Notes: generated by a model not told the origin, from the letters alone. A DNA stretch of 64,000 nucleotides from an uncultured archaeon (GCA_902384455.1 CABMCB010000092.1:316-64315), one strand, 5' to 3'. Counted from the first letter of the stretch, positions 10,716-51,529 are shown. A program made the numbers and translations.

Positions 10716-13700
10716 GTGGGCTCTCTACCTTTATTCCGCAGGCGCTTTGCGCGGAAGTTGGTGGCCGTCGTCTTTCTAGTTCTTTTGCTGTCTCAAAACA
10801 CTTTGGCTTTCTGTGTTTCATGGAGTTGCATCAAAACAGGCTATTCTAACACGGTAGAGTACATCAACTGCGTAAGGACTGACTCGGCGCAGGAGGGTGC
10901 GGTTTTGGCCGTGATTTCGTGTACGGCGAATAAGGCGTGGCAGCTTTTGCTGAGTTTTATTACTGGTGTGGCGAAGGCTATGGTTGAGGGTCTTATGGCG
11001 GCTTTTGAGTATATGTTGACGATTAATCCTTGCTTTTATAATGGGGGCATAGGTGGGATTGGGTGTACTGATCTTTTTGGCCAGCAGGTTCAGCCGAGGC
11101 CTATGGTGTTGGTGCTTGTGGGTACGTTGATTATGGTTTTGTATCCGATTTACGTTGTTTTGCTTTTGCTTGCGGGTTTTTCTTTTATTATTTCGGCTGA
11201 TGATCCTCAGCAGAGGAATATGGCGAAGGAGCGTTTTTATAAGTTGGTTATTTCGATGATTCTTGTTTCTTTGTCTCCGGTCATTTTCCAGTTGTTCCTT
11301 AATTTGGAGGTGGCTTTGGTTGAGGCTGTTTTCGGGATGATTTCTGCGGAGGTTAATAATATGACTGCTTTGTCGGGGGTGACGATTTTTGCGACTATTG
11401 CCATGATTATTGGCGCTTCGTTTGTTCAGACGTCTATTGGCGCCACTTTTGCCCTCATTGTGATTGCGGTTATTGTTGTTATGGGGATCAGGTATCTTAT
11501 GACTACGGTTTTGGGTTGTATGTTTCCCGTTACGTTGTTCTGTTATTTCTGGGAGCCTACTAGGAATTTCGGCAGGGGTTTTGTGACGAAGACTATGATG
11601 TGGATTTTTATTCCTGTTGTTCAGTCGGTTTTTCTGGCGTTGACTATCATCAGTCTTATGAGCATTGGCGGCGGAGGCGCGGCTTCAATAAACAAGATTA
11701 AGAGCAATGCTGTATCTGGGTCTATTACTGAGATCCTGATTCCTATGACGATGATAGGCGCTGGTCTTATCGGCATGATTGTGTCTCCTTTTGTGATGTC
11801 TGGGATGCTGCAGTACATCGGCGGCGCAGTCGCTGCTACTGGGATGGGCATGAGCACTAAGGAGGGAGCTACGAAGGTTCAGAGGGTGAAGGGTTTTGGA
11901 TTGATGGTGGGCGGTGCGAGTCTGATGGGGCAGGGAGTGGGCCCCAGCGCCCAGTACGCAGCCTCGACCGCAGCTTATCTTCAGTCGAGTTTTGGTCAAA
12001 GCGACGAGAGCGCTAACCTTCTCCCGTCTTCATGGAGCGGTTTTAAGCAGGAGGTAAGGGACGTTGGCACGAGCATAGGCAGGGGCGCTAGTAGGGTGAG
12101 GAGAGGCGGCAATTTCTTTAGCGCTACTCCGCCTCGCGCGGGAGGCGCTGCTTGGGGGACTCCGTGGCAGGGACGTTTTAGGGCGCCTTTCCGGCAAGCT
12201 ACCGCCCCTGTTGTAGGTATGTTAGATTCGTTGTCTCAGGATAGCGTTAACCAGCAGGAGGCCCTTAGGATGGTGGGCAAGAACAGGGGGGGCACTGCTG
12301 AGGAGGGTGAAGGTTTTGAGGGCACTAGTCTTGCCGAGAGGAATACTCCGCCTAAGTCTCCTATGTGGAAGTTTTGGGCGCCGGGAACTCCTGAAGGCGG
12401 GTACAGCGACATGTATAATACAGTCGACCAGGAGAACCGCATGAAGGGCGAAGGCAACCTGCCTCTGTTCATGTTTCCGTGGGAGTGGAGTAAGCGCGGC
12501 CAAAGTTTAGGTACGGCGTCCACTCGGCTCGCTGAGGCATTAGCCGGCAGGGAGGCGGTTGTGGAGGGGAAAGGCGGAAAGGCTCTAAGCGGCGGAGAAC
12601 GATGGATGCGCGCAGGAGCAAGCCTGGGCCATCTTGCTTTGGCGTTTAAGCCTGTTAGCCCGCTTTACCCCATCCGCCACATGGGCAGGATTCTTTACGA
12701 CATTGCCGTTGAGCTTGCTCCGCCTACCGGCCCCCTCTGGCTTATGGTGCCGCCGCGGCCAATACAGCCGTGGAAGGACTCTGATAGTAGATGGAAACGG
12801 GGCTTAGGTAAATTTATTTACGGTGCGACTACTGTCGCCCACTATGGCGCCAGGCCTTTTATGCCGCTTGCGTTGCTTCCCACTCAGGAGCGGCTTCATA
12901 GTGCCGGTTTATTCTTGAGCGGACTGGGTTTCCGCCAAGTGTATAATGGTATTGAATGGAAGCGCCAATGTAAGGGCCACGAAGCGGAATGGAAGAGAGC
13001 CCACTCGGACTATGAGGCCGCAAAAGCTTCTGGGGATTCTGCTGGGATGGCTGCAGCCCAAACGAGGAAGGATGATGCTGCGGCGAAGTACGCTTCTTTG
13101 ATGGTTAAGGTCGGCGGCCAAGGCGGGAGTAAAGGCACCCGTTTCATGGGCGAGGACGTTAAGAATCCTGCTTTCCATCGTCAGGAGGAGGAGCGCATAT
13201 CTGAGAGTAATCCTGCTTTCTACGAGCATTACCTTAGGACGGCGAGGTTAAGCAGCAAACCTATGAAGGAGGTTGATGAGGCGATTGCGGCCGGAGGCAA
13301 GTCCGCTAAGAATGCTTTTGTTACTCGGGCTATTGATGAGTTGCTTGAGGAGAGGGGTTTTTCAACGAAGGGTTTGTCATCTGGTGCTGCTGCTAGGGCT
13401 CGCGCTGCTGCTGTTGCTGAGTTCACTGTGGAGGATAAGAGGAGGATTGCTGAGGAAGCGTATTTGATGGCTTCCGCCAGCACCGCAACTGAGGGGAAGT
13501 TTGTTCCCACCAAGCAGGAGCGGCAGGAATACCGGGAGACTCAGGCCAGAAACGGATTGAATCTTTTTGAGTGGGACTCAGGCAACACTGAAATGCAGGT
13601 GCTTGCTTACGGCGTACTGGAGGGTAAGTGGCGGCAGATTGCTTTGGCCAACGAGACTCTTCTGGTGAACAACAGCGAGAACCCCATGCAGTCCATTTAC

Positions 13701-16202
13701 CATGAGGCGTACTACAGGGAGCTTGTGGCGGCAATTAAGGCTACAGGAACGGACGCCCGCCTGAAGCTTGGCGCCCTCCCGGAATCTCCGTCAGAGGCTA
13801 TGTACGAGGCGGTTGGAGGTTGGCGCAAGGAACTTAGCGAGGGAGACCAGCAGAAGGCCCGGGCAGCCCACGACAAGGCGATGGCTGCTGTTGAGGGGAT
13901 AGCGAGGGGTGTTCTTTCCGAGTCTGAGATTAAAGCCTGCGAGCAGAGGGCTGCAGAGCAGGCTAAGGTCACAAACATTCCTCTTAGGCGAGGCAGCCAA
14001 GGCCGCATCTACGCTAGGTTGGATTATGTTGCGTATGTTCAGCAGTTGGGCAAGTACAACGGCGAAGCTAATGAGATGGATGAGTTGGGCGTTGGGATGC
14101 GCGCCGGGTACAGGATGAGGAAGTTGACTGACGATGAGCTTAGGGGAGAAACCGCCATTCCAATGATTTCGAGAGGCAGGAGTGCTCACATAATATACAG
14201 GGATGACGGTGCCTACGTGATAGAGATGTATCATAACGCCGATGCCGTAGATCCTGGCTTAGGCCAGTGGATGCATCCCGGAGGAGCGATTGGTCCTGCC
14301 GGTAATTTCACGCGGGTGGGCAACGAGCCGTTGGAGGAGGCGGAGGTAGTAAACAAGACGGCCGAGCGTAGGGCTAAAGTCTTTGATCATTATGAGGGGG
14401 TTGAGAAGGATTTGGTGGGTTTTGATGTTTCGGCTGACGGTCAGCTTGTGGCTTTGACAAGCGACGGTAAACGCGTGGAATTGAGCGGCGACAGCTATTT
14501 GGTGGACCAGTCGCTTTTTGCTCAGGCGACAAACGGGGGTTTGTCTTCTCAGGAGGCGGATATAGCGCTTAGGGATTACATGCACCGTCTGAAGCAGCAG
14601 GGCGTGCCTGACGATGACGCCATGATGAGGAGCATGCAAAATACTAGGTTGAGGCGGGCTCTTATGACGGACGGAGTGTCTGACGATGTCGCAAGGGACT
14701 TTGCGAGAGTCCCCATGACAAGAGCCCCTCCGGGAGGAGTCCAACGTGAGGAGGAATTGTTTAATTTCGCGGCGATACACGCAGGCGACTACAACCCGCA
14801 AACCCGCCAGAACACCAGGTTGACTGCTGAACAATACATGACGGGAGAAAATGCCAAAAAAGTGTTCACTTCAATGAGGGAGGCAGGCAAGAGGCGGGTC
14901 CAGGAAAAAGACTTGGCCACCGCAGACGCCGAAAGACAGGCTCAAGAACGGCACAGGCAAGCCGCAGGCAGAGTGCAGATTGACGGCGAAGAACTGCTGC
15001 GCCACCCCCCCGTGATATACGACCCCAACAACAGCGAACACGTCAGACTGTACGGGCGGCCTTACGATCCTGTTAAAAATCCTGACGGCAAGAGAGCCGG
15101 CGAACGTCTTGAGCCTTTGAGGTATGATCCGACTAATCCTCATCATAGGGCTTTAGGTTGCGTAGTGTACGACCACGCTAATCCTGAGCATATCCGGTTG
15201 TACGGCAGGGGTTACAGCGACGGGGACGTGGTTTTGCAGCGGTATAAGCCCGGCGAACTGGTGGAAATGCATACTCAGGAGGAGATTGACGAACTTAAGG
15301 TAGCCGTTGATGAGGTCGCGCGTAATGCGGAAGCTGCGACTTCAAGAAGAGTCAGCGTTCCAGACCCCAGTAATCCTGCGGCAACGGTGGACGTGCTTAT
15401 GGGCGGAGAGCACCTTGACGGCGTAAGAATTGTGGCTGAAGGAGGGTGGCCTCCTGTTAACGCTGAAACCCGCGATTCGGGCACTACTTTGGTCATCGAC
15501 ATTGACGCCCAGAGGATTGTGTTGGATCCGACTACAGGGGACCCTGTGCGTGACTCCAACGGAAATTTTGTGCGGGAAAAATACACTTTAGCCGAGCTTA
15601 CGGATATGGTCAGAAACTTTTCTGCAGGCCACGAGTACACTCATTCGGCTTTGCTCAAGCAGGCCGGAGCCACTGAGAGCGTTACAGGCGACGCGGAAGG
15701 CACACGGCGGCTGGCGGACCATGTGATGGCGGACCGGAAGGCTGCTACTGAAAGAGGTTCGGACGGGGTTGTAAGAGACGTGGATTACTTTTCCGGCCTT
15801 GATGCTGTTAGAGGCGATGCGAGGGCTAGGAGGCTGTACAATGCTACTGGGGGGCAGTTTGGTCTTCTTGTGGCTGAGTCTGCTGCTAACTCGTGGCAGC
15901 CAAGCGCCGGCGACCCTAACGTAAGCATATTCGGCGAGACGCGGGCAGATTTCAACCAGCATGTAAGCCAGGCTGCTGCTCAGGTTGCTGCGGCAAACGA
16001 GAACAGACGGTTGAATCGCCGTGACGTAATGGTGCTTGCCAACTTGGCGGAGGCGGCTGAGAGGGCAGGAGACGCAGCGGTTGCCGCAAGAATAGACGGC
16101 ATGATCGCAGCCCCGACAAACGCGGCGTTATTGTCGGACTACAGGGAGGCCAGGCACGTGTCCGGGCTGGTTCACGACAACGTACGGTTTAAGACGCCGT
16201 AA
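10716..16202 (+). CDS. Giant VirB6/TrbL-like polytopic membrane protein with a roughly 1400 aa C-terminal extension
   Basis: 1828 aa. The N-terminal ~430 aa hold at least 7 TM helices. The block FWEPTRNFGRGFVTKTMMWIFIPVVQSVF matches LFEPTRSWGEKYLRKAVKWIFIPVFQAFW in 17078..19825. The remainder is soluble with coiled-coil-like Ala/Glu/Lys stretches and internal repeats (NxEHxRLYGRxY twice). I recognised no enzymatic domain. Confidence 0.5.
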   Translation: MGSLPLFRRRFARKLVAVVFLVLLLSQNTLAFCVSWSCIKTGYSNTVEYINCVRTDSAQEGAVLAVISCTANKAWQLLLSFITGVAKAMVEGLMAAFEYMLTINPCFYNGGIGGIGCTDLFGQQVQPRPMVLVLVGTLIMVLYPIYVVLLLLAGFSFIISADDPQQRNMAKERFYKLVISMILVSLSPVIFQLFLNLEVALVEAVFGMISAEVNNMTALSGVTIFATIAMIIGASFVQTSIGATFALIVIAVIVVMGIRYLMTTVLGCMFPVTLFCYFWEPTRNFGRGFVTKTMMWIFIPVVQSVFLALTIISLMSIGGGGAASINKIKSNAVSGSITEILIPMTMIGAGLIGMIVSPFVMSGMLQYIGGAVAATGMGMSTKEGATKVQRVKGFGLMVGGASLMGQGVGPSAQYAASTAAYLQSSFGQSDESANLLPSSWSGFKQEVRDVGTSIGRGASRVRRGGNFFSATPPRAGGAAWGTPWQGRFRAPFRQATAPVVGMLDSLSQDSVNQQEALRMVGKNRGGTAEEGEGFEGTSLAERNTPPKSPMWKFWAPGTPEGGYSDMYNTVDQENRMKGEGNLPLFMFPWEWSKRGQSLGTASTRLAEALAGREAVVEGKGGKALSGGERWMRAGASLGHLALAFKPVSPLYPIRHMGRILYDIAVELAPPTGPLWLMVPPRPIQPWKDSDSRWKRGLGKFIYGATTVAHYGARPFMPLALLPTQERLHSAGLFLSGLGFRQVYNGIEWKRQCKGHEAEWKRAHSDYEAAKASGDSAGMAAAQTRKDDAAAKYASLMVKVGGQGGSKGTRFMGEDVKNPAFHRQEEERISESNPAFYEHYLRTARLSSKPMKEVDEAIAAGGKSAKNAFVTRAIDELLEERGFSTKGLSSGAAARARAAAVAEFTVEDKRRIAEEAYLMASASTATEGKFVPTKQERQEYRETQARNGLNLFEWDSGNTEMQVLAYGVLEGKWRQIALANETLLVNNSENPMQSIYHEAYYRELVAAIKATGTDARLKLGALPESPSEAMYEAVGGWRKELSEGDQQKARAAHDKAMAAVEGIARGVLSESEIKACEQRAAEQAKVTNIPLRRGSQGRIYARLDYVAYVQQLGKYNGEANEMDELGVGMRAGYRMRKLTDDELRGETAIPMISRGRSAHIIYRDDGAYVIEMYHNADAVDPGLGQWMHPGGAIGPAGNFTRVGNEPLEEAEVVNKTAERRAKVFDHYEGVEKDLVGFDVSADGQLVALTSDGKRVELSGDSYLVDQSLFAQATNGGLSSQEADIALRDYMHRLKQQGVPDDDAMMRSMQNTRLRRALMTDGVSDDVARDFARVPMTRAPPGGVQREEELFNFAAIHAGDYNPQTRQNTRLTAEQYMTGENAKKVFTSMREAGKRRVQEKDLATADAERQAQERHRQAAGRVQIDGEELLRHPPVIYDPNNSEHVRLYGRPYDPVKNPDGKRAGERLEPLRYDPTNPHHRALGCVVYDHANPEHIRLYGRGYSDGDVVLQRYKPGELVEMHTQEEIDELKVAVDEVARNAEAATSRRVSVPDPSNPAATVDVLMGGEHLDGVRIVAEGGWPPVNAETRDSGTTLVIDIDAQRIVLDPTTGDPVRDSNGNFVREKYTLAELTDMVRNFSAGHEYTHSALLKQAGATESVTGDAEGTRRLADHVMADRKAATERGSDGVVRDVDYFSGLDAVRGDARARRLYNATGGQFGLLVAESAANSWQPSAGDPNVSIFGETRADFNQHVSQAAAQVAAANENRRLNRRDVMVLANLAEAAERAGDAAVAARIDGMIAAPTNAALLSDYREARHVSGLVHDNVRFKTP

Positions 16203-16216
16203 TTAACAACAGTCAA

Positions 16217-16600
16217 ATGAACATGATAAAACTTAAGGACGCGGAAGGAGGCAAGCAGTCTCCTGAAAATGAGATAAATCTGAAGGAGATTAACCCTGTA
16301 AGCGAGCGGCCTTCGGGGTTGAGTTTCGGCAGGTTGATTTCAGGGGCTGCTTTGGGGTTGAGTCTCGCCTGTTTGACTCCTGGTTGCGCTCAGGCGGCTT
16401 CTGCGCCGAGTCCTGGTGTTGCCGAGAAAATATTTGATGTGGCGGTTTATGCGGCAAGCACTATTGTTGCGTGGGAATTTTTCGCCACAATCTCAAAGGC
16501 TGTATCGACGCATTATAAACCAAGCGACTTGTTTCGTGCAGGGTGGTTGAGGTTGAGATACGGAAGAAAACAGAATAAGGAGGGAGAGGATGGCGACTAA
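16217..16600 (+). CDS. Hypothetical small protein with a central hydrophobic segment (locus accessory)
   Basis: 127 aa ORF co-directional with the cluster and overlapping the next ORF by 11 nt. A hydrophobic stretch (LISGAALGLSLACL) may be a TM or lipoprotein-like segment. Confidence 0.4.
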   Translation: MNMIKLKDAEGGKQSPENEINLKEINPVSERPSGLSFGRLISGAALGLSLACLTPGCAQAASAPSPGVAEKIFDVAVYAASTIVAWEFFATISKAVSTHYKPSDLFRAGWLRLRYGRKQNKEGEDGD

Positions 16601-17081
16601 GGGCACGGCAGGTGAAGGCAGTTCCCCTAAAGGGTCTAAGGGGAAAACTAGGGTTAGCGAGGCAGACGCGTTAAAAATCCTGAAGGAATTGGCTTGGCGT
16701 AAACTGGAGCTCTACAAATCCGACTCACTGGATGCGATACGAGGGATTGTATTGCAAAGAAGCAAAATCCGCGGAGCAAACCTCGACCCCGGAAAAATAA
16801 GCTGGGAGGAACTTTTCAAGACTAACGTATGCCCCAACTGCCGCGGAAGACTAACTTTACTGGGCGAACGCTACCTATGCGACACATGCCTGATCGAGAT
16901 TCCCGCCAACGTATACGAGGCCGCTGAAAAGCAGTATTACGGTGAGACTAAGCTTTTGGACGATGAACAGCAGGCCACACAGAATCTTTTAGATGCTGGG
17001 TACAGCATGAACGAACTGGTAGAGCTCTACGCGAAAGCGGAAAAGGAGGCGTTAACCGAACCTAGATGGGATAAGAGATGA
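16590..17081 (+). CDS. Hypothetical zinc-ribbon protein
   Basis: 163 aa with a CPNCRG...CDTC (CxxC-x14-CxxC) motif. It overlaps the next gene by 4 nt, so the two are probably translationally coupled. Confidence 0.45.
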   Translation: MATKGTAGEGSSPKGSKGKTRVSEADALKILKELAWRKLELYKSDSLDAIRGIVLQRSKIRGANLDPGKISWEELFKTNVCPNCRGRLTLLGERYLCDTCLIEIPANVYEAAEKQYYGETKLLDDEQQATQNLLDAGYSMNELVELYAKAEKEALTEPRWDKR

Positions 17082-19825
17082 AACCACGCATTTTACTGGC
17101 TGCGGCGTTGATACTTGTTATTTCAGCTGCGGCCTTGCATGCGCAGATGCCCGACGAGCCGGAGGAGGTTAGCCCGCCTTTTTGGGATATGGTGGCTAGA
17201 GGCTTGAACAGTTTGGCGATAGCGGAGATACATCTGCTTGTGTTGTGGACTGCTTTCAATCCGCAACTTTTTTGTTTCCCCGCGTACGCTCACTGCCATG
17301 TGACAGGTGGCGTGGACAAGTTGCTTCCAGCGTTCATATCGGTCTTGATACCGCTTTACATTCTTGCCTTGATTATAACCGGATTTTTCACCATAGTCCG
17401 GGCTGGTTCTCCGCACGGAAGAGCTAGGGCGCGAACCATGTTCAACAAACTCATCCTCAGCATGCTTCTTGTGATTCTTTCGCCGGTGCTGTACCAGCTG
17501 ATGATAGACACGTCCCAGTCCATGACTAAAGCCATAGTGTACGGCTCCGACGTGGACTTGGTTTTCATCCAAATACCCATGCCGACAAGCGCCAACCTCG
17601 ACATGCTGGAGAAGACTTCCACCACCAAGGTAATCGGAATCCTCATATTATCGGCCATGACTTTGTTTGCCGCCGCAATAGGCATCGTAATAGCCATAAT
17701 CCGATGGTTCTACGTCTACATCTACGGCATCGTGTTTCCGTTCATAATATTCCTGTATCTTTTCGAGCCCACCCGCTCTTGGGGAGAAAAATACCTGCGC
17801 AAGGCAGTAAAATGGATTTTCATCCCCGTCTTCCAGGCATTCTGGCTCTCGTTCGCCGTGGCAGTACTGGCGGCAGCCGGAACATACTCGCTGGTTCCCG
17901 TATGGCAGGGGGGAATACCAGCCAGCGCACAGTCGCTAATAGACGAATTCTTCGGCGTACTCATAACCTACTTTATGGTGGGCGCTTCAATCTGGATGTA
18001 CATACTTTCACCCTACGCCATAGCCAAACTTATGACATGGTTCGGCAACGGAATGATATCATACGGCTACGCAAGCCACCAAGCATGGCCCATAACATGG
18101 GGCGGAATAATGGCCGGCTCAGGCGACTCAAGCCTGCTTTCCGCCCACGCCGAATGGAACCGTGAAAGAGCCTTCGAACACTACCAGATGGTCGCAAACG
18201 GCGGACTCATGGGCACGCGCATGGGAGCCACAGCCAGCCGCAGAGGAGGAGTCGAAAGCGGAATGTACGGCGGCGTAGGAGGAGGACCAACCGGCTCAAG
18301 CGCCGCACCCGCAACACCCGGCGGACCAGACTACGGCCCAGTGTTTGGAGGAAGCAGCGGAGGGTATCCGACAGCTGGCCAACCAGATTACCCCGAACAA
18401 AGAAGCGGAAGCGCATTTCCTACATCTGGCCGACCAGATTATCCTGAGCGAACAGGTCAAGGAAACGCTCCTCAGAGCCCGTACAGCTCTGCGGCAATGG
18501 GCGTTGGACAGTGGGGTGTGAACGAAGGAGAAAATGCCGGCGAGCAACCAAACGCAGGCGTGCGAGCGAGAGCAGGCAGCAGTAGTACTGCAGCTTCTTC
18601 GGCTAGAACCTCGGACGAAGGAGGAGGACTGCCGAGACTACAAGGCCCCGCCAGGACTCAACCGGATGAGCAGGCACGCTTCGATGAGAGTTATGAACCA
18701 GACCAAGTCGTCACGTCCACGCAGAAGGGTGGAACCGGCACAGGATATGATGCGGGAAGCACTCAAGGATACGGTGATGACGCACAAGAGGGGGGGGAGG
18801 ATGCTGAATATAGTAATACTCCAACAGGTACGAACGCAACCGGCGGCCGGACGTATAGTCAGGTTCGTTCTGCTGCGGCAGCCGCGCGCAGGCCTGGAAC
18901 TGCTTCGCCGACTGAGTTTGATGCTCCTGGCGAGAATCAACTGGTTTCATCGCGTGATGATGTTCCTGGCGACCCCGGAGGCACTAAAGAAGGTGACGCA
19001 GGGCCCGACGCAACTGTAGACGCAGGAGGTGGAGTTGCTTCAGGCAGAGCCCGAAGGACGAGAGAAGCAGATACTTCAAGCAGAACCGGACGCGTTAGAG
19101 AAGCCGACTCCGGCGACCAACGGGCAAGGAAACGGAAAAAAACGGATTATTTCGACGACGTTGAAACCGGGCCTAAAGAGGATAGGAGTAGTACAGACAG
19201 GACTGCAACAGACGATAGGACTGCCACAGATTGGGGTGCTTCAAGGCTGAAAGCACCCCCACGGGGGGTAGAACCAGTACAGCAGACGGAATCCAACCAG
19301 CAGGCTAGGGATGATTCCTCATACAACGATACTGCTTCCGCATTAGGAGAAAGTAGACTAGCAGAAGAGGACTCGGATGCGGCAACGGATGCAGGAAAGG
19401 ATGAGGATGTGTTAGCTATAATCCGCAGAGAAAGTAAGAAGGCCAAGCAGGAGGGGAGAAAAGGCGGCTTCGATAAAGACTTCCTTAAGGAAGAGCTCGA
19501 CCAAATCAACAAACAAAAACAAGGAACGGACAAAAGATTTGACTGGGAAACACAAGGAGACGACACCGCGATTAAAGAAGGCGAAAACAAAGTTTATTCC
19601 GCAGTCGACAAACGAGCAACAGCCCGCAAACTTGAGGCCGACAACGCGGCTGCAAACTTGGACGAAGCAAAAAGGTTTACGGCATCTGAAAAAGAGAAGG
19701 AAAAAGGCAGAATACAGGACACTAATAAGAATATAGTTACAGCCAAAGCAGATGCGAAAAGCCAAAAACAAATCGCCAAAGACCAGGCGAAATTCCAACC
19801 TAAAGGCAAATCAGGAGAAAGTTAA
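17078..19825 (+). CDS. VirB6/TrbL-like polytopic membrane protein paralog with a disordered low-complexity C-terminal tail
   Basis: 915 aa. It has a signal peptide and at least 6 TM helices homologous to the N-terminal part of 10716..16202. The C-terminal ~550 aa are G/S/P/D/E/R/T-rich with short tandem repeats (GQPDYPEQR / GRPDYPERT; TDRTATDDRTATD). Confidence 0.5.
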   Translation: MKPRILLAAALILVISAAALHAQMPDEPEEVSPPFWDMVARGLNSLAIAEIHLLVLWTAFNPQLFCFPAYAHCHVTGGVDKLLPAFISVLIPLYILALIITGFFTIVRAGSPHGRARARTMFNKLILSMLLVILSPVLYQLMIDTSQSMTKAIVYGSDVDLVFIQIPMPTSANLDMLEKTSTTKVIGILILSAMTLFAAAIGIVIAIIRWFYVYIYGIVFPFIIFLYLFEPTRSWGEKYLRKAVKWIFIPVFQAFWLSFAVAVLAAAGTYSLVPVWQGGIPASAQSLIDEFFGVLITYFMVGASIWMYILSPYAIAKLMTWFGNGMISYGYASHQAWPITWGGIMAGSGDSSLLSAHAEWNRERAFEHYQMVANGGLMGTRMGATASRRGGVESGMYGGVGGGPTGSSAAPATPGGPDYGPVFGGSSGGYPTAGQPDYPEQRSGSAFPTSGRPDYPERTGQGNAPQSPYSSAAMGVGQWGVNEGENAGEQPNAGVRARAGSSSTAASSARTSDEGGGLPRLQGPARTQPDEQARFDESYEPDQVVTSTQKGGTGTGYDAGSTQGYGDDAQEGGEDAEYSNTPTGTNATGGRTYSQVRSAAAAARRPGTASPTEFDAPGENQLVSSRDDVPGDPGGTKEGDAGPDATVDAGGGVASGRARRTREADTSSRTGRVREADSGDQRARKRKKTDYFDDVETGPKEDRSSTDRTATDDRTATDWGASRLKAPPRGVEPVQQTESNQQARDDSSYNDTASALGESRLAEEDSDAATDAGKDEDVLAIIRRESKKAKQEGRKGGFDKDFLKEELDQINKQKQGTDKRFDWETQGDDTAIKEGENKVYSAVDKRATARKLEADNAAANLDEAKRFTASEKEKEKGRIQDTNKNIVTAKADAKSQKQIAKDQAKFQPKGKSGES
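18361..18470 (+). repeat. Imperfect tandem coding repeat (~28 nt unit, spaced 50 nt) encoding G(Q/R)PDYPE(Q/R)
   Basis: ctggccaaccagattaccccgaacaa is read against ctggccgaccagattatcctgagcga. Confidence 0.4.
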
Positions 19826-19849
19826 AATAAACCCCCAGCTAACTAATAA

Positions 19850-20794
19850 TTGAATAACCACATGACAAGCGAAGAAAAAGAAGGCCGACGAAGGATACTG
19901 CAGGACTTGGAGAGGGACGTAATCCAAAGCCCCCGCGAACAAGAGGAACTCCGAAGAGAAATACGAACCCAAGACGCCGACGACATCGCAATCAAAGACC
20001 GCATACTACGCCAAGCAGAACGCATAAGAACCACGGCACCACCACCCGGCACACACGTAAGACAAACAACCTCAGCAGCCGGAGGCTCAGGAGGAAGCGG
20101 AGACGACATAGTGCAAATACCACTCAGAGACGAACGCCTACGCGACATGAGCGTCGGAGAAATACAAAACAGAATACCACCCGGCGCAACAGTAACAATG
20201 AGCAACGACGGAATAACCGTCGGCCTACACAGAAGCGACATAACAGAAATACTCATCGACCACATTTTCATCGCGGCCGCAGGCCCCACTAAAAAAGGGA
20301 AGTCTATGCTTAAGCCAGCTGGCGCCCCATGGGCATCGGAGGCCGTGAGCATGGAGCTCGCAAGCAAAGGCGTGCGTCCGGTATGGCACCGCATAACTAA
20401 ATACGAGCTTATGGATGACTACTCCAGGTACTATCTCCTGTGGGAGTGGGACCATCAGCTGCTTCGTATCCAAAACGGACTAGCCGCAGGATACCAACCC
20501 AGCGCACCCCGCACATGGTGGAAGAAAAAAATCAAAAGCGACGTAGACGCCATGATAGACGACCTCAACAGAGACCTGTCTTATGAAGGCCAATACATGA
20601 AGAGAGTCAAAGGCAGGATGGAGCAACACGCAAAAGACCATGCTGCGGCCAAAGCAGCCTTAGACCATTGGGAAGAGGACCTTAGGGGATACGACAGGTT
20701 CACGACTGAAGAGGAAAAAAGGATAGCGGACTACACAAAAGGCGCGATGGAGCAGGCAATGGCCGCCGAGAAGATAGAGGAAATATCCGACTAA
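19850..20794 (+). CDS. Hypothetical soluble protein (locus accessory)
   Basis: The 314 aa ORF is predicted from a TTG start. A more likely start is the ATG at 19862 (MTSEEKEGRR...). The N-terminus is charged. I recognised no domain. Confidence 0.4.
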   Translation: MNNHMTSEEKEGRRRILQDLERDVIQSPREQEELRREIRTQDADDIAIKDRILRQAERIRTTAPPPGTHVRQTTSAAGGSGGSGDDIVQIPLRDERLRDMSVGEIQNRIPPGATVTMSNDGITVGLHRSDITEILIDHIFIAAAGPTKKGKSMLKPAGAPWASEAVSMELASKGVRPVWHRITKYELMDDYSRYYLLWEWDHQLLRIQNGLAAGYQPSAPRTWWKKKIKSDVDAMIDDLNRDLSYEGQYMKRVKGRMEQHAKDHAAAKAALDHWEEDLRGYDRFTTEEEKRIADYTKGAMEQAMAAEKIEEISD

Positions 20795-20832
20795 ACAGAA
20801 CTTAAACATACAAACTAACACTTAACCACATT

Positions 20833-21759
20833 ATGCCGTACGCAATACCTAAAAACATCCGGTACGAGGAGAAGCTCCTAGGCCCCCTCACCGTCAAGCA
20901 GACTGCTTACGTCGGAGTAGGCGCGTCAATAGCCGGCTACATTTACATGATGAGCGGCCTGCAGGACGAAATCAAGACCGCCGCGGTACTGGTCGTGGGG
21001 TTGCTGACGATAGGGTTTGCCATGTTCAACCTCGACACCCTACTTCGGACGTACGTGGGCTTCATGCGGGCGACTAAAAAGAGCAGTTGGATATCGCCTG
21101 CAGCACGAGAACTCCTTAACATCCAAAGCATCCGCGCAGACGCAGTCTACCTGAAAGACAAGAGGATACTTGGGCTGCTCAAGGTTAGGCCCATAAACTT
21201 CGGCGTCCTTTCCGCGCACGACCAAGACACCGTCATCTACGGCTTCCTTGAGTTCCTCAACAGCCTCAACTTCAGCATACAGATTACAATGCGAAGCGTC
21301 AACCTCGACCTTGAGGATTATCTTCGGCACCTTAAACGCCGCATAGTGCACAGAGATGACAAGGTGGCTCTGGCGTACTACGAACACTTCGCAGAGTACA
21401 TGCGCACATACATCAAAGTGAACAGAATCAACGACCGGCACTTCTACGTGGTCGTGCCGGCCGCAAAAGGAAAAGACGAAAAAACAACCGTATTAGACCT
21501 GGAAAAAAGATGCGAACTAATATCGGCTACTTTAGGCTTGAGCGGGATAGTTAGCGAACGGATGGACACCCATGCGTTAATCAATTTTTACAGCAGCTAC
21601 TTCACGGAAACATTCGAGATATTCGAGTCATACATAAGCCCCATCACACTGTACAGGAAGATGTGGAAGCAGGCGCCAAAACACGTGTTAAACCAAGCAG
21701 GACCCGGAGTTTCTCCGACTGCGCCGGCACAACAACCGCAGGCGAAGCCGCCGGAATAA
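20833..21759 (+). CDS. VirB3-like two-TM segment fused to a VirB4 N-terminal domain
   Basis: 308 aa. Two N-terminal TM helices (VGVGASIAGYIYMM; AAVLVVGLLTIGFAMF) are followed by a region resembling the N-terminal domain of VirB4/TrbE/TraC (..LLKVRPINFGVLSAHDQDTVIYGFLEFLNSLNFSIQITMRSVNLD..). It ends 4 nt before the next gene, in a different frame. Confidence 0.45.
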   Translation: MPYAIPKNIRYEEKLLGPLTVKQTAYVGVGASIAGYIYMMSGLQDEIKTAAVLVVGLLTIGFAMFNLDTLLRTYVGFMRATKKSSWISPAARELLNIQSIRADAVYLKDKRILGLLKVRPINFGVLSAHDQDTVIYGFLEFLNSLNFSIQITMRSVNLDLEDYLRHLKRRIVHRDDKVALAYYEHFAEYMRTYIKVNRINDRHFYVVVPAAKGKDEKTTVLDLEKRCELISATLGLSGIVSERMDTHALINFYSSYFTETFEIFESYISPITLYRKMWKQAPKHVLNQAGPGVSPTAPAQQPQAKPPE

Positions 21760-21763
21760 TACC

Positions 21764-24058
21764 ATGGGACTAGCTGACTTACTACCTTTCGGAGGCAAAA
21801 AGAAGGAGACGACGGGAGCCGGCAACGAGACATACTCAGAATACGAAGACCGCCTCATAGAATACCTGACAAGCCCCTCCACGATCATCCAGCACAAGGA
21901 AGACATACAAATCAGCAAATACCACCGCGTAGTCGCAGCAATAGACTTCCCCCGCATCGTAGACCCAGGCTGGCTAACCCGGCTCATAGAAATGAACCTG
22001 GACTTCGACCTGTCGATGCACATAAACCCCTACAACGTAGACTCCACAATCAAACTGCTGGAGAACGAGATAAAGAAGCAGAAAACAGACCTCTACGCGC
22101 TCGAATCAGAAGGAAAAATAGTGCCCCAAGCCCTCATACAACAGCACCAAGACACACTCGCACTACTACAACTCGTACAGGAAGGCACTGAAAAAATGTT
22201 CGACGTCTCCCTCTACATAGACGCCAAAGCATACGCCTCAGAAGAACTGGACTCAAACGCCAAACAAATAATGACGACGATGAACAGCATCATGGTAACC
22301 CCAAAAATACCAAGCTACCAGATGTACAAAGGCCTCAAAAGCATCCTCCCCATCGCCGACGACCAATTGAGGGTGACGCGCAACATCACAAGCTCAGCAC
22401 TCGCCGCCTGCTTCCCGTTTGCCATAACAAGCCTGGAAACTCACGCCACAGGCATACTACTGGGGTTCAACGAATACAACAGCATCCCCATCATAATAGA
22501 CCCCTTCAACTACACCAACCCCAACGTGCTCGTCCTTGGAACCAGCGGAGGCGGAAAAAGCTACACCCTAAAACTCATGATAATGCGGGAATTCATGGAA
22601 GGAGTATCAGTCAACATGATAGACCCGCAAGCCGAATACACCGACCTCGTCAAGACTTTCAATGGGAAGACCATCAGAATCGCCCCCGACAGCGACAGCA
22701 TAATCAACCCCTTCGACCTCATGGGACAGACACTCGACGAAAAGAAACTATCATTGCTCGCATTCTTCCGCGTCCTCTTGGGCGAACTGACCGAACCAGA
22801 ACGCGCCATACTCGACGACGCCATAGACAGAACATACGAAGAAAAAGGCATAACAAACGACCCAAAAACATGGAGCAAAAGACCGCCGCTACTCGAAGAC
22901 CTATACAACGAAGTCCTACCCCTAACACGAAGCAGCAAAGACATAGTCTACAAACCGGCAATGGCCATAGTCAACCAAATGAAAAGCTACGTGTTCGGCC
23001 CCATGAAGTTCTTGAACCAGCAGACTAAGATTGACCTAAGCAACCGGATGATCAATTTCGACATCCGGGACGCACCCGACATAGGCAAAGGAGTCATAAT
23101 GTTCCTGATTCTCGAGTACGTCTACACCCAGATGAAGAAGAGCAAGACCAGAAAGATGCTCGTCATCGACGAAGCCTGGACGGTGCTCTCGGCAGGAGAC
23201 CAGGCCGAGTACATACTGCGGCTCGTCAAGACGTGCAGGAAATTCAACCTAAGCTTGTGCATGATAACCCAAGACGTAGAGGACGTGCTGGTCAGCCGCG
23301 CAGGCCGCGCCGTGCTCACCAACACCGCAACCAAACTGCTTCTGAAGCAGGACACCAGCGTCATAGACCAGATTGCGGACAAATTCCACCTAAACGAAAA
23401 CGAAGTCCGTTTCCTAAAGACCGCCCGCGCAGGACACGCTCTGCTCATCGCAGAAAACACGCGCGTCCCCATCTTCATCCAAGCAAGCCCCGAGGAACAC
23501 CGCGTAATCACCACCAAACCAGACGAACTCATACAGCTGGAGCAGGTAATGCGGCCTATGGGCGACGACATCGTGCCTGAATTCGACATCAACAAGAAGA
23601 TACACCAGAAGGCGGAACTCACGGACGACCAGATTAAGATACTGCAGGACAGAGACTTCGACGAAACCCGCATCACCACGCTAACGGGAGACAACGAACT
23701 GTTCATCATAAAGAACGAGACTGAAGAATCCGACGAACACTTCGTGCTCCAACACCTGATACTGGAAGAAACCAAAAAACACACCGATAAAGGACTGTCC
23801 CACCACACCCAGCTGCCGGACGTAACGTTCGAAGCAGGAGGAGGACGCCTCGTCGCAGTCGAAGTCGAGACGGAGGGAGGACTCAAGAGGGCGCTTGAAA
23901 ACATGGACACCAAACTCCCAGTCATGAAGAAGTACGACGACTACTTCTACGTAGTCACAAGCCCCACCATCAAAAGAGACTACGCAGACAGATTCGGCGG
24001 ACCCGAAAAAGTCATTATGCGGGACGAAGCAGCAGCCAAAATCGCCTCATACTTCTGA
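21764..24058 (+). CDS. VirB4/TrbE/CagE-family T4SS ATPase with a C-terminal Hjc/PD-(D/E)xK-like nuclease domain
   Basis: 764 aa with Walker A VLGTSGGGKS (about residues 257-266) and Walker B KMLVIDEAW. The C-terminal ~160 aa (EHFVLQHLILEE...PDVTFEAGGGRLVAVEVETEGGLKR...KRDYADRFGGPEKVIM) resemble archaeal Holliday-junction resolvase Hjc (E...VDLVA...IEVK...[20 protein letters not shown]). Confidence 0.6.
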   Translation: MGLADLLPFGGKKKETTGAGNETYSEYEDRLIEYLTSPSTIIQHKEDIQISKYHRVVAAIDFPRIVDPGWLTRLIEMNLDFDLSMHINPYNVDSTIKLLENEIKKQKTDLYALESEGKIVPQALIQQHQDTLALLQLVQEGTEKMFDVSLYIDAKAYASEELDSNAKQIMTTMNSIMVTPKIPSYQMYKGLKSILPIADDQLRVTRNITSSALAACFPFAITSLETHATGILLGFNEYNSIPIIIDPFNYTNPNVLVLGTSGGGKSYTLKLMIMREFMEGVSVNMIDPQAEYTDLVKTFNGKTIRIAPDSDSIINPFDLMGQTLDEKKLSLLAFFRVLLGELTEPERAILDDAIDRTYEEKGITNDPKTWSKRPPLLEDLYNEVLPLTRSSKDIVYKPAMAIVNQMKSYVFGPMKFLNQQTKIDLSNRMINFDIRDAPDIGKGVIMFLILEYVYTQMKKSKTRKMLVIDEAWTVLSAGDQAEYILRLVKTCRKFNLSLCMITQDVEDVLVSRAGRAVLTNTATKLLLKQDTSVIDQIADKFHLNENEVRFLKTARAGHALLIAENTRVPIFIQASPEEHRVITTKPDELIQLEQVMRPMGDDIVPEFDINKKIHQKAELTDDQIKILQDRDFDETRITTLTGDNELFIIKNETEESDEHFVLQHLILEETKKHTDKGLSHHTQLPDVTFEAGGGRLVAVEVETEGGLKRALENMDTKLPVMKKYDDYFYVVTSPTIKRDYADRFGGPEKVIMRDEAAAKIASYF

Positions 24059-24088
24059 TTTTTAGTTACTGCCGGAGAGTATGTAACA

Positions 24089-24424
24089 ATGGGCCGGACA
24101 ACGTTCATTTTATGCGGCGTAATGCTCGCTTTTGCGGTCGCGGACTGCTCGGCGCAGTTCACAAGCATACCCTCCAGCTGCGTCGTCGGCGGAGGCAACC
24201 TTGGTTACACTATCGCGCTAGGCAACTTCGACCTTTTAAACACTGAAATAATGAGCGTCGCCAGCGCCGCAGCAGTCGTGATGATTGGTATGCAGGCGCT
24301 AAAGTGGACCACGGAAACAGACCCGGCAGGCCGCGAGAGCGCGCGCAAGGGAATTATTTACGTAGTGTTGGGTTTGGCGTTGATGATGAGCGCCGGCGGC
24401 ATTGTGGGTTTCCTTCTCTGCTGA
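24089..24424 (+). CDS. VirB2/TrbC-like pilin paralog 2
   Basis: 111 aa with a signal peptide, two hydrophobic helices and a conserved loop IGMQALKWTTETDPAGRESARKGIIYVVLGLAL. This compares with pilin 1, MQGIKWAGSADDPGARKQAKSGIVNAIIGLV. Confidence 0.5.
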   Translation: MGRTTFILCGVMLAFAVADCSAQFTSIPSSCVVGGGNLGYTIALGNFDLLNTEIMSVASAAAVVMIGMQALKWTTETDPAGRESARKGIIYVVLGLALMMSAGGIVGFLLC

Positions 24425-24451
24425 TTTTTATCCGCTATTGCCCAGTAGGTT

Positions 24452-24796
24452 ATGATGAAGGCGACGGTGTTGTTTGCTGCGACGTTCATTGTGTTTTGTT
24501 TTGCGAGTTTTGCGGCTGGAGCTCCTTGTTCTGTATCTGGTGCAGGTCCGATTACTGCGGCAGGCAGCACTTTTTACGACATGATTTGCGACCTTGTTGA
24601 GATTGCTTCCGCATTGGGGACTCTTATGATTGCGATTCAGGGCCTAAGGTGGGCTGTCGCGGACGGCGCTTCCGAGCGCAATGAGGCGAAGAAGGGTATT
24701 ATGTACGTTGTGATTGGTTTGGCTTTGGTTGTGAATGCGCCAACTATCGTTGACACAATTTACTGGAACAACATTCCGCCGGCGTATAAACCATAA
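24452..24796 (+). CDS. VirB2/TrbC-like pilin paralog 3
   Basis: 114 aa with the same architecture and the loop IAIQGLRWAVADGASERNEAKKGIMYVVIGLAL. Confidence 0.5.
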   Translation: MMKATVLFAATFIVFCFASFAAGAPCSVSGAGPITAAGSTFYDMICDLVEIASALGTLMIAIQGLRWAVADGASERNEAKKGIMYVVIGLALVVNAPTIVDTIYWNNIPPAYKP

Positions 24797-49483: not shown

Positions 49484-51529
49484 ATGCCAGTCGCTTCGCT
49501 TATGCAGATTAAGGGCGTCGGAAAGAAGATGGCCGACTCCCTGATTAAGGCTTACGGCAGCGAAGAAGCCGTTCTTTCCGCGCTGGCTTTAGGCGACGTC
49601 GACGGGCTGTCGGCGGTGCCGGGCGTTGGAGGCGGCCGCGCTTTGAGTCTTGTGCGGGCTTTTAGGGTGGGTGGCGGAGGTTGGCCTTTGAAGACTGAAG
49701 CGGCGAATGAGGTTTTTGAGCGTCTATTGGAGGTTATTAGGAGGTATCCTGTGACTGACGGTGGCCGCCGCAGCGTTAATGCGCTTGTTGTTTATTCGGA
49801 TTTGGATGGTGTTTCACGGGGTTTTTCGCGCGTTAAAGACAGCGTTTCTTTGCCTGAGGGTACTGTTGCGTCGGTTAGGGATGCTCTTTCGCGGGTTTGC
49901 GCCCTTAAGCCAGTCAAACGGCCTTTTTTTGACGATAGGGTTGTCGGGGCTTTTTCTGAATCTGCTTTTGAGCGTGCTCATTCTCTCTTGTCAAAGTACG
50001 TTTCTGTGGCGCTTTGGGACGGCCCGGATGATTTGAGGAGGCAGGAAGGTAAGAAGGTTTTTTTGGTGACTGACGGGCAAGAGGATGTTTCCGCGGGGGA
50101 CGATGTTACTGTTGTTTCGGGTGAGCAGCTTAACGTGCCGGACGTTGTGCCTGAGGCGGTTCTGCTGCCGTTCGTCCAAAACAAAGAGACTGTTGACGCC
50201 TTGAGGAAGGTGTCTGAGTGCGTGAGAAACGAACCTGCCTTATCCCGGTTCACTGCGGCATTTAACCTTGAGTTTCTTGCCGGCGTCTCACTTGACGAAT
50301 TCGACGAGGAAGGCCGCGTTAATGAGGGTGTTGTGCGTGAGGTTGATAAGGCGTTGAATGTTTCTTTGCGTTTGGTTGAGGCGGTTGAGCGGGAGACTAA
50401 GGCGATTAATGAGCGCGTGGGGCAGCGGCTAGAGGCGGAGAAAGTGACTGTTTCCGCTTCGGCCCTTTTGAACTTGGCGGCCGGAGGAAACATAGAGCAG
50501 GTGATGCCTGCTCTCGCTTCAATCGTCGAGGAGGAGATTGACGCCGCAGTAAGCCGGCTTAAGACTGAGTTTGACGGGCATGATTCTCTGATGGAGGCCG
50601 CAGAATGGTTCAACGAAACGTATCCTGTGAAGGCTAATTTGGAGGCTGCTGAAGCGGTCGCCGCGGCTTCTGCTGTTGAGGCGTCTGATGTTTGCTTTAG
50701 GAGGATTAGTTTTGCGGCGCGCAAGCTTGTTGGCAAGAGGAAGAGTGTTGATGAGGCGCTTGCCGCGACGTATGAGCTTGATTTGTTTGTGGCGCTGGGC
50801 GTTTTCGCCCGCGAAAACAATCTAACCGAACCCAAACCGGGAGAGGGTTTGGGTTTTGCTGGCGGACGAAACCTTTTCATCAAAGACGCCCGGCCAGTCA
50901 ACTACAGCTTAGGCTCAAAGTTAGGGCCGAATGAAAGGGTCGCCGTCCTTACCGGCGCAAACAGCGGCGGAAAAACAACGCTCCTCACGCTTCTCATGCA
51001 GGTTCAGCTTCTTGCCCAAATGGGGCTTTACGTCCCGGCAACTGAAGCGGAATTCAAATTGGTTGAGGAATTCTACTACATAACAAAACACAGGGGAACA
51101 ATGAACGCAGGCGCATTCGAAGAAAGCCTTAAGACGCTCGTGCCCCTTGCGTCGGCAGGAGTGCCCAGGATGGTGCTCGTAGACGAACTGGAGGCAGTCA
51201 CAGAACCAGGCGCAGCAGCAAGCGTCCTATCAGTGCTCCTCCACCTCCTTGCCGAATCAGGCTCACACGCAGTATTCGTCACACACCTCTCACAGGAAAT
51301 AGCAACAAGACTGCCAGCAGGAGTAAGAATAGACGGCATAGAAGCAGAAGGCCTCGACGAAAACCTCAACCTAATAGTAGACCGCCAACCCAAATACGGA
51401 GTAGTCGGAAGAAGCACGCCCGAACTAATAGTACGCCGACTATTCCACACCGCAGACGGACAAGAAAAAGAAGCCTACAGCCTCATACTGGAGACTATGA
51501 AAAAAGACGCGGCCGAAGCCAAAAAATAG
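49484..51529 (+). CDS. MutS2-family protein with N-terminal HhH motifs (archaeal MutS-like ATPase)
   Basis: N-terminal HhH motifs (IKGVGKKMADSL; VPGVGGGRAL) and a C-terminal MutS domain V (GANSGGKTTLL Walker A, VLVDELE Walker B). Confidence 0.7.
   Translation: MPVASLMQIKGVGKKMADSLIKAYGSEEAVLSALALGDVDGLSAVPGVGGGRALSLVRAFRVGGGGWPLKTEAANEVFERLLEVIRRYPVTDGGRRSVNALVVYSDLDGVSRGFSRVKDSVSLPEGTVASVRDALSRVCALKPVKRPFFDDRVVGAFSESAFERAHSLLSKYVSVALWDGPDDLRRQEGKKVFLVTDGQEDVSAGDDVTVVSGEQLNVPDVVPEAVLLPFVQNKETVDALRKVSECVRNEPALSRFTAAFNLEFLAGVSLDEFDEEGRVNEGVVREVDKALNVSLRLVEAVERETKAINERVGQRLEAEKVTVSASALLNLAAGGNIEQVMPALASIVEEEIDAAVSRLKTEFDGHDSLMEAAEWFNETYPVKANLEAAEAVAAASAVEASDVCFRRISFAARKLVGKRKSVDEALAATYELDLFVALGVFARENNLTEPKPGEGLGFAGGRNLFIKDARPVNYSLGSKLGPNERVAVLTGANSGGKTTLLTLLMQVQLLAQMGLYVPATEAEFKLVEEFYYITKHRGTMNAGAFEESLKTLVPLASAGVPRMVLVDELEAVTEPGAAASVLSVLLHLLAESGSHAVFVTHLSQEIATRLPAGVRIDGIEAEGLDENLNLIVDRQPKYGVVGRSTPELIVRRLFHTADGQEKEAYSLILETMKKDAAEAKK

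Follow-up and report, generated by a model that had tools for sequence, protein, structure and literature searches.

The 64,000-nucleotide window analysed here, from an uncultured archaeon (GCA_902384455.1, CABMCB010000092.1:316-64315), encodes a VirB4-family ATPase, and the structural models support the assignment of its last ~150 residues to the PD-(D/E)xK (restriction-endonuclease-like, RE-like) superfamily as a previously unannotated member. The conserved H..PD..ExE..K signature of this C-terminal module defines a new family of the superfamily, which is missed by current domain libraries. The finding is a variant of two known kinds of protein, the VirB4 ATPase and the PD-(D/E)xK superfamily, and a functional coupling of the module to DNA transport is plausible. 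The database record identical to the 764-amino-acid (aa) protein is named 'AAA-like domain protein [uncultured archaeon]'.

The ATPase and its C-terminal extension

The ATPase is of the VirB4/TraC/TrbE type of type IV secretion systems (T4SS), comprising the homologous P-loop domain with both a Walker A and a Walker B motif. Residues 238-550 are covered by the Pfam models P-loop_TraG, AAA_10 and DUF87, with 101 bits for P-loop_TraG compared to a cut-off of 25.8. The solved VirB4 C-terminal domain 4ag5 aligned with residues 9-388 of its 392 on residues 229-583 of the query (E 8e-35), and TrwK/VirB4 of R388 (7o41) matched the ATPase as well (E 7e-5). The NCBIfam model of the CD1110-type VirB4 reached an E of 2.6e-91 and 307 bits, which lies slightly below its equivalog cut-off of 325, and at query residue 581 had already run to position 747 of its 752. 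Since both 4ag5 and the CD1110-type profile finish there, the end of the canonical VirB4 was placed near residue 587, leaving ~177 residues extra. Full-length orthologues showed 55-76% identity and lengths of ~750-780 aa, and among the matches listed nearly all belong to Candidatus Altiarchaeota/Altiarchaeales. The extension was found in 118 of the 120 homologues listed, the remaining two being fragments; therefore, it is not the tail of a chance open reading frame (ORF). An earlier note on this DNA had named both the VirB4-family ATPase and an extension beyond the canonical VirB4/TrbE proteins, and both statements are confirmed by these data.

In the full-length AlphaFold2 model, residues 592-605 showed a predicted local distance difference test score (pLDDT) below 50. 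These residues are therefore regarded as a flexible tether. The mean pairwise identity was 31% in the linker, compared to 43% in the C-terminal module and 63% in the ATPase domain. Inteins (PF14890) were observed in some of the orthologous VirB4 genes (P0111, P0113, P0127), and P0127, with 1426 aa, comprises ~650 aa inserted between the ATPase halves.

Fold of the C-terminal module

The module is matched by none of the sequence models of Pfam, NCBIfam, PADLOC or the PDB, and Pfam is blank on the last 200 residues. The structure was predicted with AlphaFold2 for the module, based on a 42-sequence alignment, and separately for the full-length protein. The model of the module showed a mean pLDDT of 92.3 and a predicted template modelling score of 0.84, and the full-length model repeated the same secondary structure. 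In the modelled order, a subdomain (613-649) is followed by a helix (657-671), three strands (677-679, 687-690 and 696-702), a second helix (707-721) and a further strand (726-731). From helix 657-671 through strand 726-731 this corresponds to the alpha-beta-beta-beta-alpha-beta core of RE-like proteins, with a mixed sheet of four strands between helices, after which the model continues with helix 734-744, strand 750-752 and helix 753-762.

Foldseek searches against the PDB ranked NucS/EndoMS, AF2093, Can2, YaeQ, SPO1766 and Hjc at the top, and searches against viral models ranked restriction endonucleases, VRR-NUC, PD-(D/E)XK nucleases and a 'competence protein' at the top. No Foldseek match reached an E below 1e-3; the family is therefore remote from any solved structure. 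All three structure searches agreed on an RE-like fold, and the nuclease-fold reading of the earlier note is supported.

At the sequence level, searches of the PDB with the C-terminal domain (CTD), with the 42-sequence profile and with a profile of the stand-alone family yielded only spurious TAL-repeat or ubiquitin matches. Some of the homologues showed sub-threshold Pfam matches, namely to AHJR-like REase (5 members, best E 0.008), CoiA nuclease (3 members), HSDR_N_2 and Hjc (E 0.2), and PADLOC gave REase_II at an E of 0.008, likewise sub-threshold. These weak matches are consistent with the PD-(D/E)xK superfamily and with no single family of it.

The RE core is preceded by a subdomain that is present together with the core in all stand-alone homologues, and N651 at its end is invariant across the 118 Altiarchaeal orthologues. 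This subdomain might be a degenerate duplicated half-unit. Its pattern (L..EQI..L...GF.E.R, then a hairpin) resembles helix 1 and strand 1 of Hjc, with a mismatch of the catalytic residues.

Candidate active site

For the determination of conservation, 245 sequences were placed on one profile, comprising 118 Altiarchaeal CTDs, 39 other VirB4-linked sequences and 88 stand-alone representatives. H659, D686, E700 and K717 were each retained in at least 95% of these family members. The PD motif P685-D686 lies directly before strand 687-690. The motifs quoted in that note, EHFVLQHL (658-665), PDVTF (685-689) and LVAVEVE (696-702), all exist. D686 opens core strand 2 and E700 lies within core strand 3, where the PD and (D/E)xK motifs are canonically located. 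The helix Glu quoted in the note, E658, is conserved only within Altiarchaeota (103 of 118); across the family, the conserved residue is its neighbour H659.

At position 702, the window protein has Glu, as do 121 of the 127 DPANN and stand-alone members (motif AIEVETGK), while E702 is kept in just 45 of the 118 Altiarchaeal orthologues. Among the documented PD-(D/E)xK variants, the catalytic Lys can be moved to core helix 2 (PD-EXX-K) or replaced by Glu (BamHI) (PMC3424549). As in the E-x-E variants of the BamHI type, Glu replaces Lys at +2 in the window protein and the DPANN members. Judged from the sequence, K717 fits the PD-EXX-K relocation. The module shares with PD-EXX-K proteins (e.g. 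Pa4535/1y0k) the alpha-beta-beta-beta-alpha-beta core, an Asp starting strand 2, a Glu in strand 3 and, as a candidate, a Lys from core helix 2. His-containing PD-(D/E)xK sites with a helix-borne Lys occur in cap-snatching endonucleases.

Compared to the variants catalogued by Steczkiewicz et al. 2012 (PMC3424549), the module has no detectable sequence relationship and differs in the invariant His starting helix 1, in the extra strand-helix-strand-strand subdomain, and in being always membrane-proximal, either fused to VirB4 or with transmembrane (TM) helices of its own. Can2/Card1/VC1899 (DUF1887) and NucS/EndoMS show 10-17% identity to the module; they possess the canonical ExK, and the module comprises neither the CARF nor the NucS N-terminal domain.

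Relation to Hjc

The earlier note had aligned the motifs of the extension with the archaeal Holliday junction resolvase Hjc. Concerning the nuclease domain in general, the RE-like fold and the conserved site agree with this reading, but the specific identity with Hjc could not be upheld. Pfam Hjc (PF01870) gave no match to the CTD, with a best value among the homologues of E 0.2 and 12 bits compared to a cut-off of 21.1, and neither Hjc nor another nuclease was found in PDB sequence searches with profiles of the module or of the wider family. With hhalign, a probability of 2% was obtained against the single sequence of Pfu Hjc (verified as identical to 1gef), and one of 9% for a 167-sequence family alignment against 42 Thermococcales Hjc sequences. 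The register of this latter comparison was wrong in addition: Hjc helix 1 to strand 3 fell onto the N-terminal subdomain, with D33, E46 and K48 at T639, N651 and T653, and the catalytic tetrad E9/D33/E46/K48 is not in register. The tail KRDYADRFGGPEKVIM, which had also been compared with Hjc, is not homologous to it. Its GGPE insertion occurs in 1 of the 118 orthologues, and helix 3 and strand 5 of the module had been set against helix 2 and strand 4 of Hjc; the tail 'RFGGPEKVIM' is a weak motif that lies after the core in the model. Since the Pfam, PDB profile and hhalign comparisons all failed, membership in the Hjc family was rejected.

The module and Hjc (PF01870; 1gef, 1hh1, 1ob8) have in common the superfamily fold, the archaeal origin and the Asp/Glu on the pair of strands 2 and 3. 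Unlike Hjc, a free dimer of ~125 aa, the module is fused to an ATPase, lacks the Lys of the ExK motif and shows no conserved Glu in helix 1. Structurally, RE-fold proteins other than Hjc are nearer to the module.

Operon and chromosomal setting

The ATPase gene is the 7th of nine ORFs on the same strand (10716-24796), with only two pilin genes after it (Table 1). VirB2-, VirB3- and VirB6-like partners adjoin VirB4, and the same arrangement was found in orthologous and DPANN loci. In the window, VirB4 is divided over two genes. The assignment of the upstream one is based on Pfam PrgI, on NCBIfam VirB4_plasma (positions 33-277) and on PF26593 found on the neighbour of an orthologue. The DPANN counterpart is a single PrgI-VirB4-CTD polypeptide of 980-1040 aa (e.g. 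L014:5550-8504). Relatives of ~1100 aa (P0114) likewise unite PrgI/VirB3, the VirB4 N-domain and the ATPase in a single polypeptide.

Table 1. Features of the VirB4 locus in the window and recombinase-linked loci of the wider family
Feature	Location	Strand	Remark
VirB4-family ATPase gene with C-terminal nuclease-fold extension	21764..24058	+	764 aa plus stop
Canonical VirB4 P-loop ATPase domain, aa 229-587	22448..23524	+	4ag5 alignment, Pfam P-loop_TraG
Walker A GTSGGGKS, aa 259-266	22532-22564	+	
Walker B MLVIDEAW, aa 465-472	23150-23182	+	
Poorly conserved, predicted disordered linker, aa 588-611	23525..23596	+	low pLDDT, low identity
N-terminal subdomain of module, aa 612-655, strand-helix-strand-strand, ending in N651-E652-T motif	23597..23728	+	AlphaFold2 models
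Predicted PD-(D/E)xK / restriction-endonuclease-like core, aa 656-764	23729..24055	+	
H659, start of core helix 1, candidate metal or catalytic His	23738..23740	+	237/245
P685-D686, 'PD' motif at N-terminus of core strand 2	23816..23821	+	P 212/245, D 243/245
E700-V-E702, core strand 3, (D/E)xK position without Lys	23861..23869	+	E700 242/245 plus 3 D
K717, core helix 2, candidate relocated catalytic Lys (PD-EXX-K variant)	23912..23914	+	233/245
Y724			217/245 plus 20 F
First cluster gene, 1828-aa protein, T4SS_pilin-like multi-TM N-terminus	10716..16202	+	
163-aa soluble ORF, CPNC...CDTC zinc ribbon	16590-17081	+	faint Pfam Zn_ribbon match
VirB6/TrbL-like polytopic membrane protein, 915 aa, at least 7 predicted TM segments	17078..19825	+	weak Pfam TrbL match
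VirB3/PrgI-like TM segment and VirB4 N-terminal (TraC-like) domain, 308 aa	20833..21759	+	4 nt before ATPase gene
Two VirB2/TrbC-type pilin genes	24089-24424, 24452-24796	+	Pfam T4SS_pilin, TrbC
Recombinase-linked stand-alone loci	L008, L033, L037, L039, L044, L051, L054, L057, L060, L061, L063, L069, L073, L075, L081-L083, L086; L001:2-1784		match near 8001 in most

The first gene of the cluster encodes a protein for which ~10 TM segments are predicted and whose N-terminal 350 residues include a T4SS_pilin-like stretch; this protein recalls the giant surface proteins beside VirB4-like ATPases of other DPANN-type archaea. It is followed by two small ORFs, of which the one with the zinc ribbon could be a nucleic-acid-binding or regulatory part of the system. 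A 314-aa soluble protein is encoded between the VirB6/TrbL-like and the 308-aa genes.

The cluster is flanked by housekeeping genes, including those for glycosyltransferases, HMG-CoA reductase, an aconitase-family protein, isocitrate/isopropylmalate dehydrogenase, PurL, glutamate synthase and form III RuBisCO. Within the 64-kb window, neither a tRNA nor an integrase, a relaxase or a VirD4 was found. Since these markers are missing and housekeeping genes lie on both sides, an origin of the locus from a mobile element was rejected. An identical gene layout was found within a 1.56-Mb Altiarchaeal contig. The locus is a chromosomal, phylum-conserved T4SS-like machine, neither a plasmid nor an integrative and conjugative element. 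An assignment as a defence system was also rejected, as PADLOC gave no match.

The AT skew was strongly positive (+0.32 to +0.41) over the T4SS genes (18001-24000) and approximately zero or negative elsewhere in the window, presumably reflecting a coding-strand purine bias of these genes. Two further genes of the window are chromosomal markers without bearing on the finding; they encode a MutS2-like protein with helix-hairpin-helix motifs at its N-terminus (49484-51529, plus strand) and the large subunit of a form III-type RuBisCO (56121-57395, minus strand).

Wider family and phyletic spread

A word-indexed search with the CTD alone returned just 4 fragments. An exhaustive profile search over 1.84 billion cluster representatives yielded 532 proteins at E up to 1e-3, of which 277 reached an E of 1e-10 or lower. 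The best 150 of the 532 included VirB4 fusions of 730-1430 aa, some of them named Diapherotrites or Nanoarchaeota, and many proteins of 170-400 aa with the domain and no ATPase. Among the ATPase-less proteins, 46 are extended at the N-terminus by 60 aa or more; in 34 of these, TM segments were predicted, in most cases two, with a basic and coiled-coil stretch behind them. The domain was also observed in fusion with a thymidylate kinase (P0169), with an HTH_11 domain (P0253) and with a weakly matching integrase SAM-like N-terminus (P0148), fusions which hint at nucleotide-salvage or DNA-binding contexts.

Scanning GTDB with one genome per species for the seed peptide pattern [IYF]AIE[VI]ETG[KSL], with confirmation by tblastn, led to 80 loci, nearly all from Nanoarchaeota, Woesearchaeota and Pacearchaeota. 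A few of the bins are labelled as Methanosarcinales or bacterial, for which mis-binning is possible. The domain forms the C-terminus of VirB4 in 49 of the 80 loci, so that the fusion is present in at least 49 DPANN species genomes. The idea that the stand-alone homologues are split-off T4SS subunits beside VirB4 was discarded, as none of 26 such loci comprised a VirB4 within 8 kb. In 19 of the 26, a tyrosine-recombinase gene lies directly upstream on the same strand with a gap of at most 500 bp, several of them matching Pfam Phage_integrase, and the same recombinase family occurs within 5 kb of 11 VirB4-fused loci. The stand-alone homologue and the recombinase look like a conserved gene pair.

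Searches of the plasmids in PLSDB, the phages in INPHARED and the contigs in IMG/VR revealed no relatives of the CTD. The distant 1099-aa VirB4-CTD protein P0114 (L006:10001-23300) is located near an XPB-type helicase next to DUF790 (Bax1-like nuclease), a serine resolvase and a Fic protein, a neighbourhood which may be a mobile or defence island.

Comparison with related systems

The Ced and Ted DNA-import systems of Crenarchaeota, with the VirB4-like ATPases CedB and TedB, resemble the locus in the window in being chromosomal, domesticated T4SS with VirB2-, VirB6- and VirB4-like parts and without VirD4 or relaxase (PMC9905601, PMC11868833). In those systems, the processing of DNA was attributed to separate nucleases, HerA-NurA and ParB-like (PMC9905601, PMC11868833), whereas in the window the ATPase polypeptide includes the nuclease-fold domain. 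The ATPase fails the NCBIfam equivalog models of CedB (57 bits compared to 700) and CedD (64.5 bits compared to 600) and is closest to the monoderm CD1110-type VirB4. According to reviews, a relaxase is not known from any conjugative or DNA-exchange system of archaea (PMC9905601; PMC12857230).

A second point of comparison is the giant SPEARE protein of nanohaloarchaea. Hamm et al. 2019 proposed a 'restriction endonuclease' in its cytoplasmic part, with homologues in Altiarchaeales, and speculated on a degradation of imported DNA (PMC6642349). La Cono et al. 2023 re-read this region as a VirB4/TraG ATPase plus a coiled coil without an endonuclease domain (PMC10266531). In both SPEARE and the system in the window, giant surface proteins are linked to a cytoplasmic ATPase that is VirB4/TraG-like and of the DPANN type. 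However, the endonuclease in SPEARE was called from a helicase/ATPase match, whereas the protein in the window comprises a separate, well-modelled RE-fold domain after the ATPase. No description of this RE-fold domain was found in the literature searched, although one may exist elsewhere.

Proposed function and alternative explanations

For the explanation of these observations, the following function is proposed. The module hangs by the disordered linker of ~25 residues from the cytoplasmic ATPase of a chromosomal T4SS-like pilus machine, which consists of pilins, VirB6, VirB3 and VirB4 and lacks VirD4 and relaxase. The candidate site of H659, D686, E700 (with E702) and K717, with the Lys given by the helix after strand 3, would bind a divalent metal and act as a Mg2+/Mn2+ endonuclease, cutting nucleic acid where the translocon opens into the cytoplasm. 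A VirB4 hexamer would be ringed by up to six such nuclease modules, and DNA would most likely be cut on entering or leaving the channel. By analogy with the Ced/Ted importers, which are likewise chromosomal and without VirD4 or relaxase, it is favoured that incoming DNA is processed, for recombination or salvage, over the making of an export substrate; this direction is the weakest part of the proposal. The data show the fusion, the fold, the conserved residues, the linker, the operon context and the phyletic spread, and the catalysis, the substrate and the coupling to transport are inferred from them. Taken jointly, a PD-(D/E)xK module on VirB4 that binds metal and cuts nucleic acid at the translocon, with incoming DNA favoured, has about an even chance of being correct. 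The earlier note had suggested a nuclease in place of the missing relaxase. Because a PD-(D/E)xK enzyme is unable to make the covalent 5'-phosphotyrosyl link of a relaxase, such a replacement could only concern the generation of ends or nicks and not the piloting of DNA.

Several points weigh against this proposal. The canonical lysine of the ExK motif is absent, position 702 never being K; 62% of the Altiarchaeal orthologues have I, V or S there, in 25 of the 118 neither 702 nor 704 is acidic, and the loss of E702 could reflect a decaying site. TIP26, AF1548 and YaeQ, which are among the top structural neighbours, are not proven nucleases, and every sequence-level link to known nuclease families lies below threshold. 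The spatial convergence of H659, D686, E700 and K717 is deduced from the modelled topology, and the nuclease activity is itself a prediction. In addition, DNA is a presumed cargo of this T4SS-like system, and related systems of DPANN and Patescibacteria have been proposed to serve effector secretion or the support of epibiosis (PMC10266531; PMC12857230).

The main alternative is a catalytically dead RE-fold domain serving on VirB4 as a receptor for DNA or substrate or as a docking platform, which would take over the recruitment role of the missing VirD4. This alternative, which the ExK position without Lys, the degenerate E702, the neighbours that are non-nuclease or uncharacterised RE-fold proteins and the locus without VirD4 all favour, is possible, though not probable. 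The conservation of the four residues H659, D686, E700 and K717 across 245 divergent sequences is typical of a working metal site and not of a binding surface, and the full H..PD..ExE(T)G..K signature is intact in the DPANN and stand-alone members. Quite unlikely is a regulatory or protein-protein interaction domain, for instance one that oligomerises or anchors the VirB4 hexamer, in a machine confined to pilus assembly or protein secretion. Such a role would suit an operon rich in pilin-like and giant surface proteins, and effector secretion and adhesion have been proposed for DPANN systems that are related and have giant surface proteins (PMC10266531), but conservation is focused on the canonical nuclease positions, and the domain family is linked to recombinases, an HTH domain and a nucleotide kinase. 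With membership in the Hjc family largely refuted by the comparisons described above, a genuine Hjc-family resolvase acting on recombination intermediates with the transferred DNA is very improbable, despite the shared fold.

Going beyond the proposed cutting at the translocon, the T4SS motor in Altiarchaeota and DPANN might carry its own nuclease in the sense that the VirB4-tethered PD-(D/E)xK module both cuts and threads DNA without relaxase, covalent pilot or coupling protein, with the stand-alone, membrane-anchored and recombinase-linked paralogues as a free-standing nuclease at the membrane gate. This extended version is considered rather unlikely.

Significance

The conserved nuclease-fold domain inside the VirB4 motor offers a concrete, mutable candidate for DNA handling in archaeal T4SS-like machines without relaxase. 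The fusion spans Altiarchaeota and many DPANN lineages, groups with cell-cell associations and reduced genomes, and the domain bears on the disputed 'restriction endonuclease' assignment of the DPANN SPEARE/VirB4-like proteins. The new H..PD..ExE..K family also includes membrane-anchored paralogues closely tied to tyrosine recombinases. If the extended version, with cutting and threading by the module, is true, the T4SS would transfer or take up DNA in a distinct mode that is independent of a relaxase.

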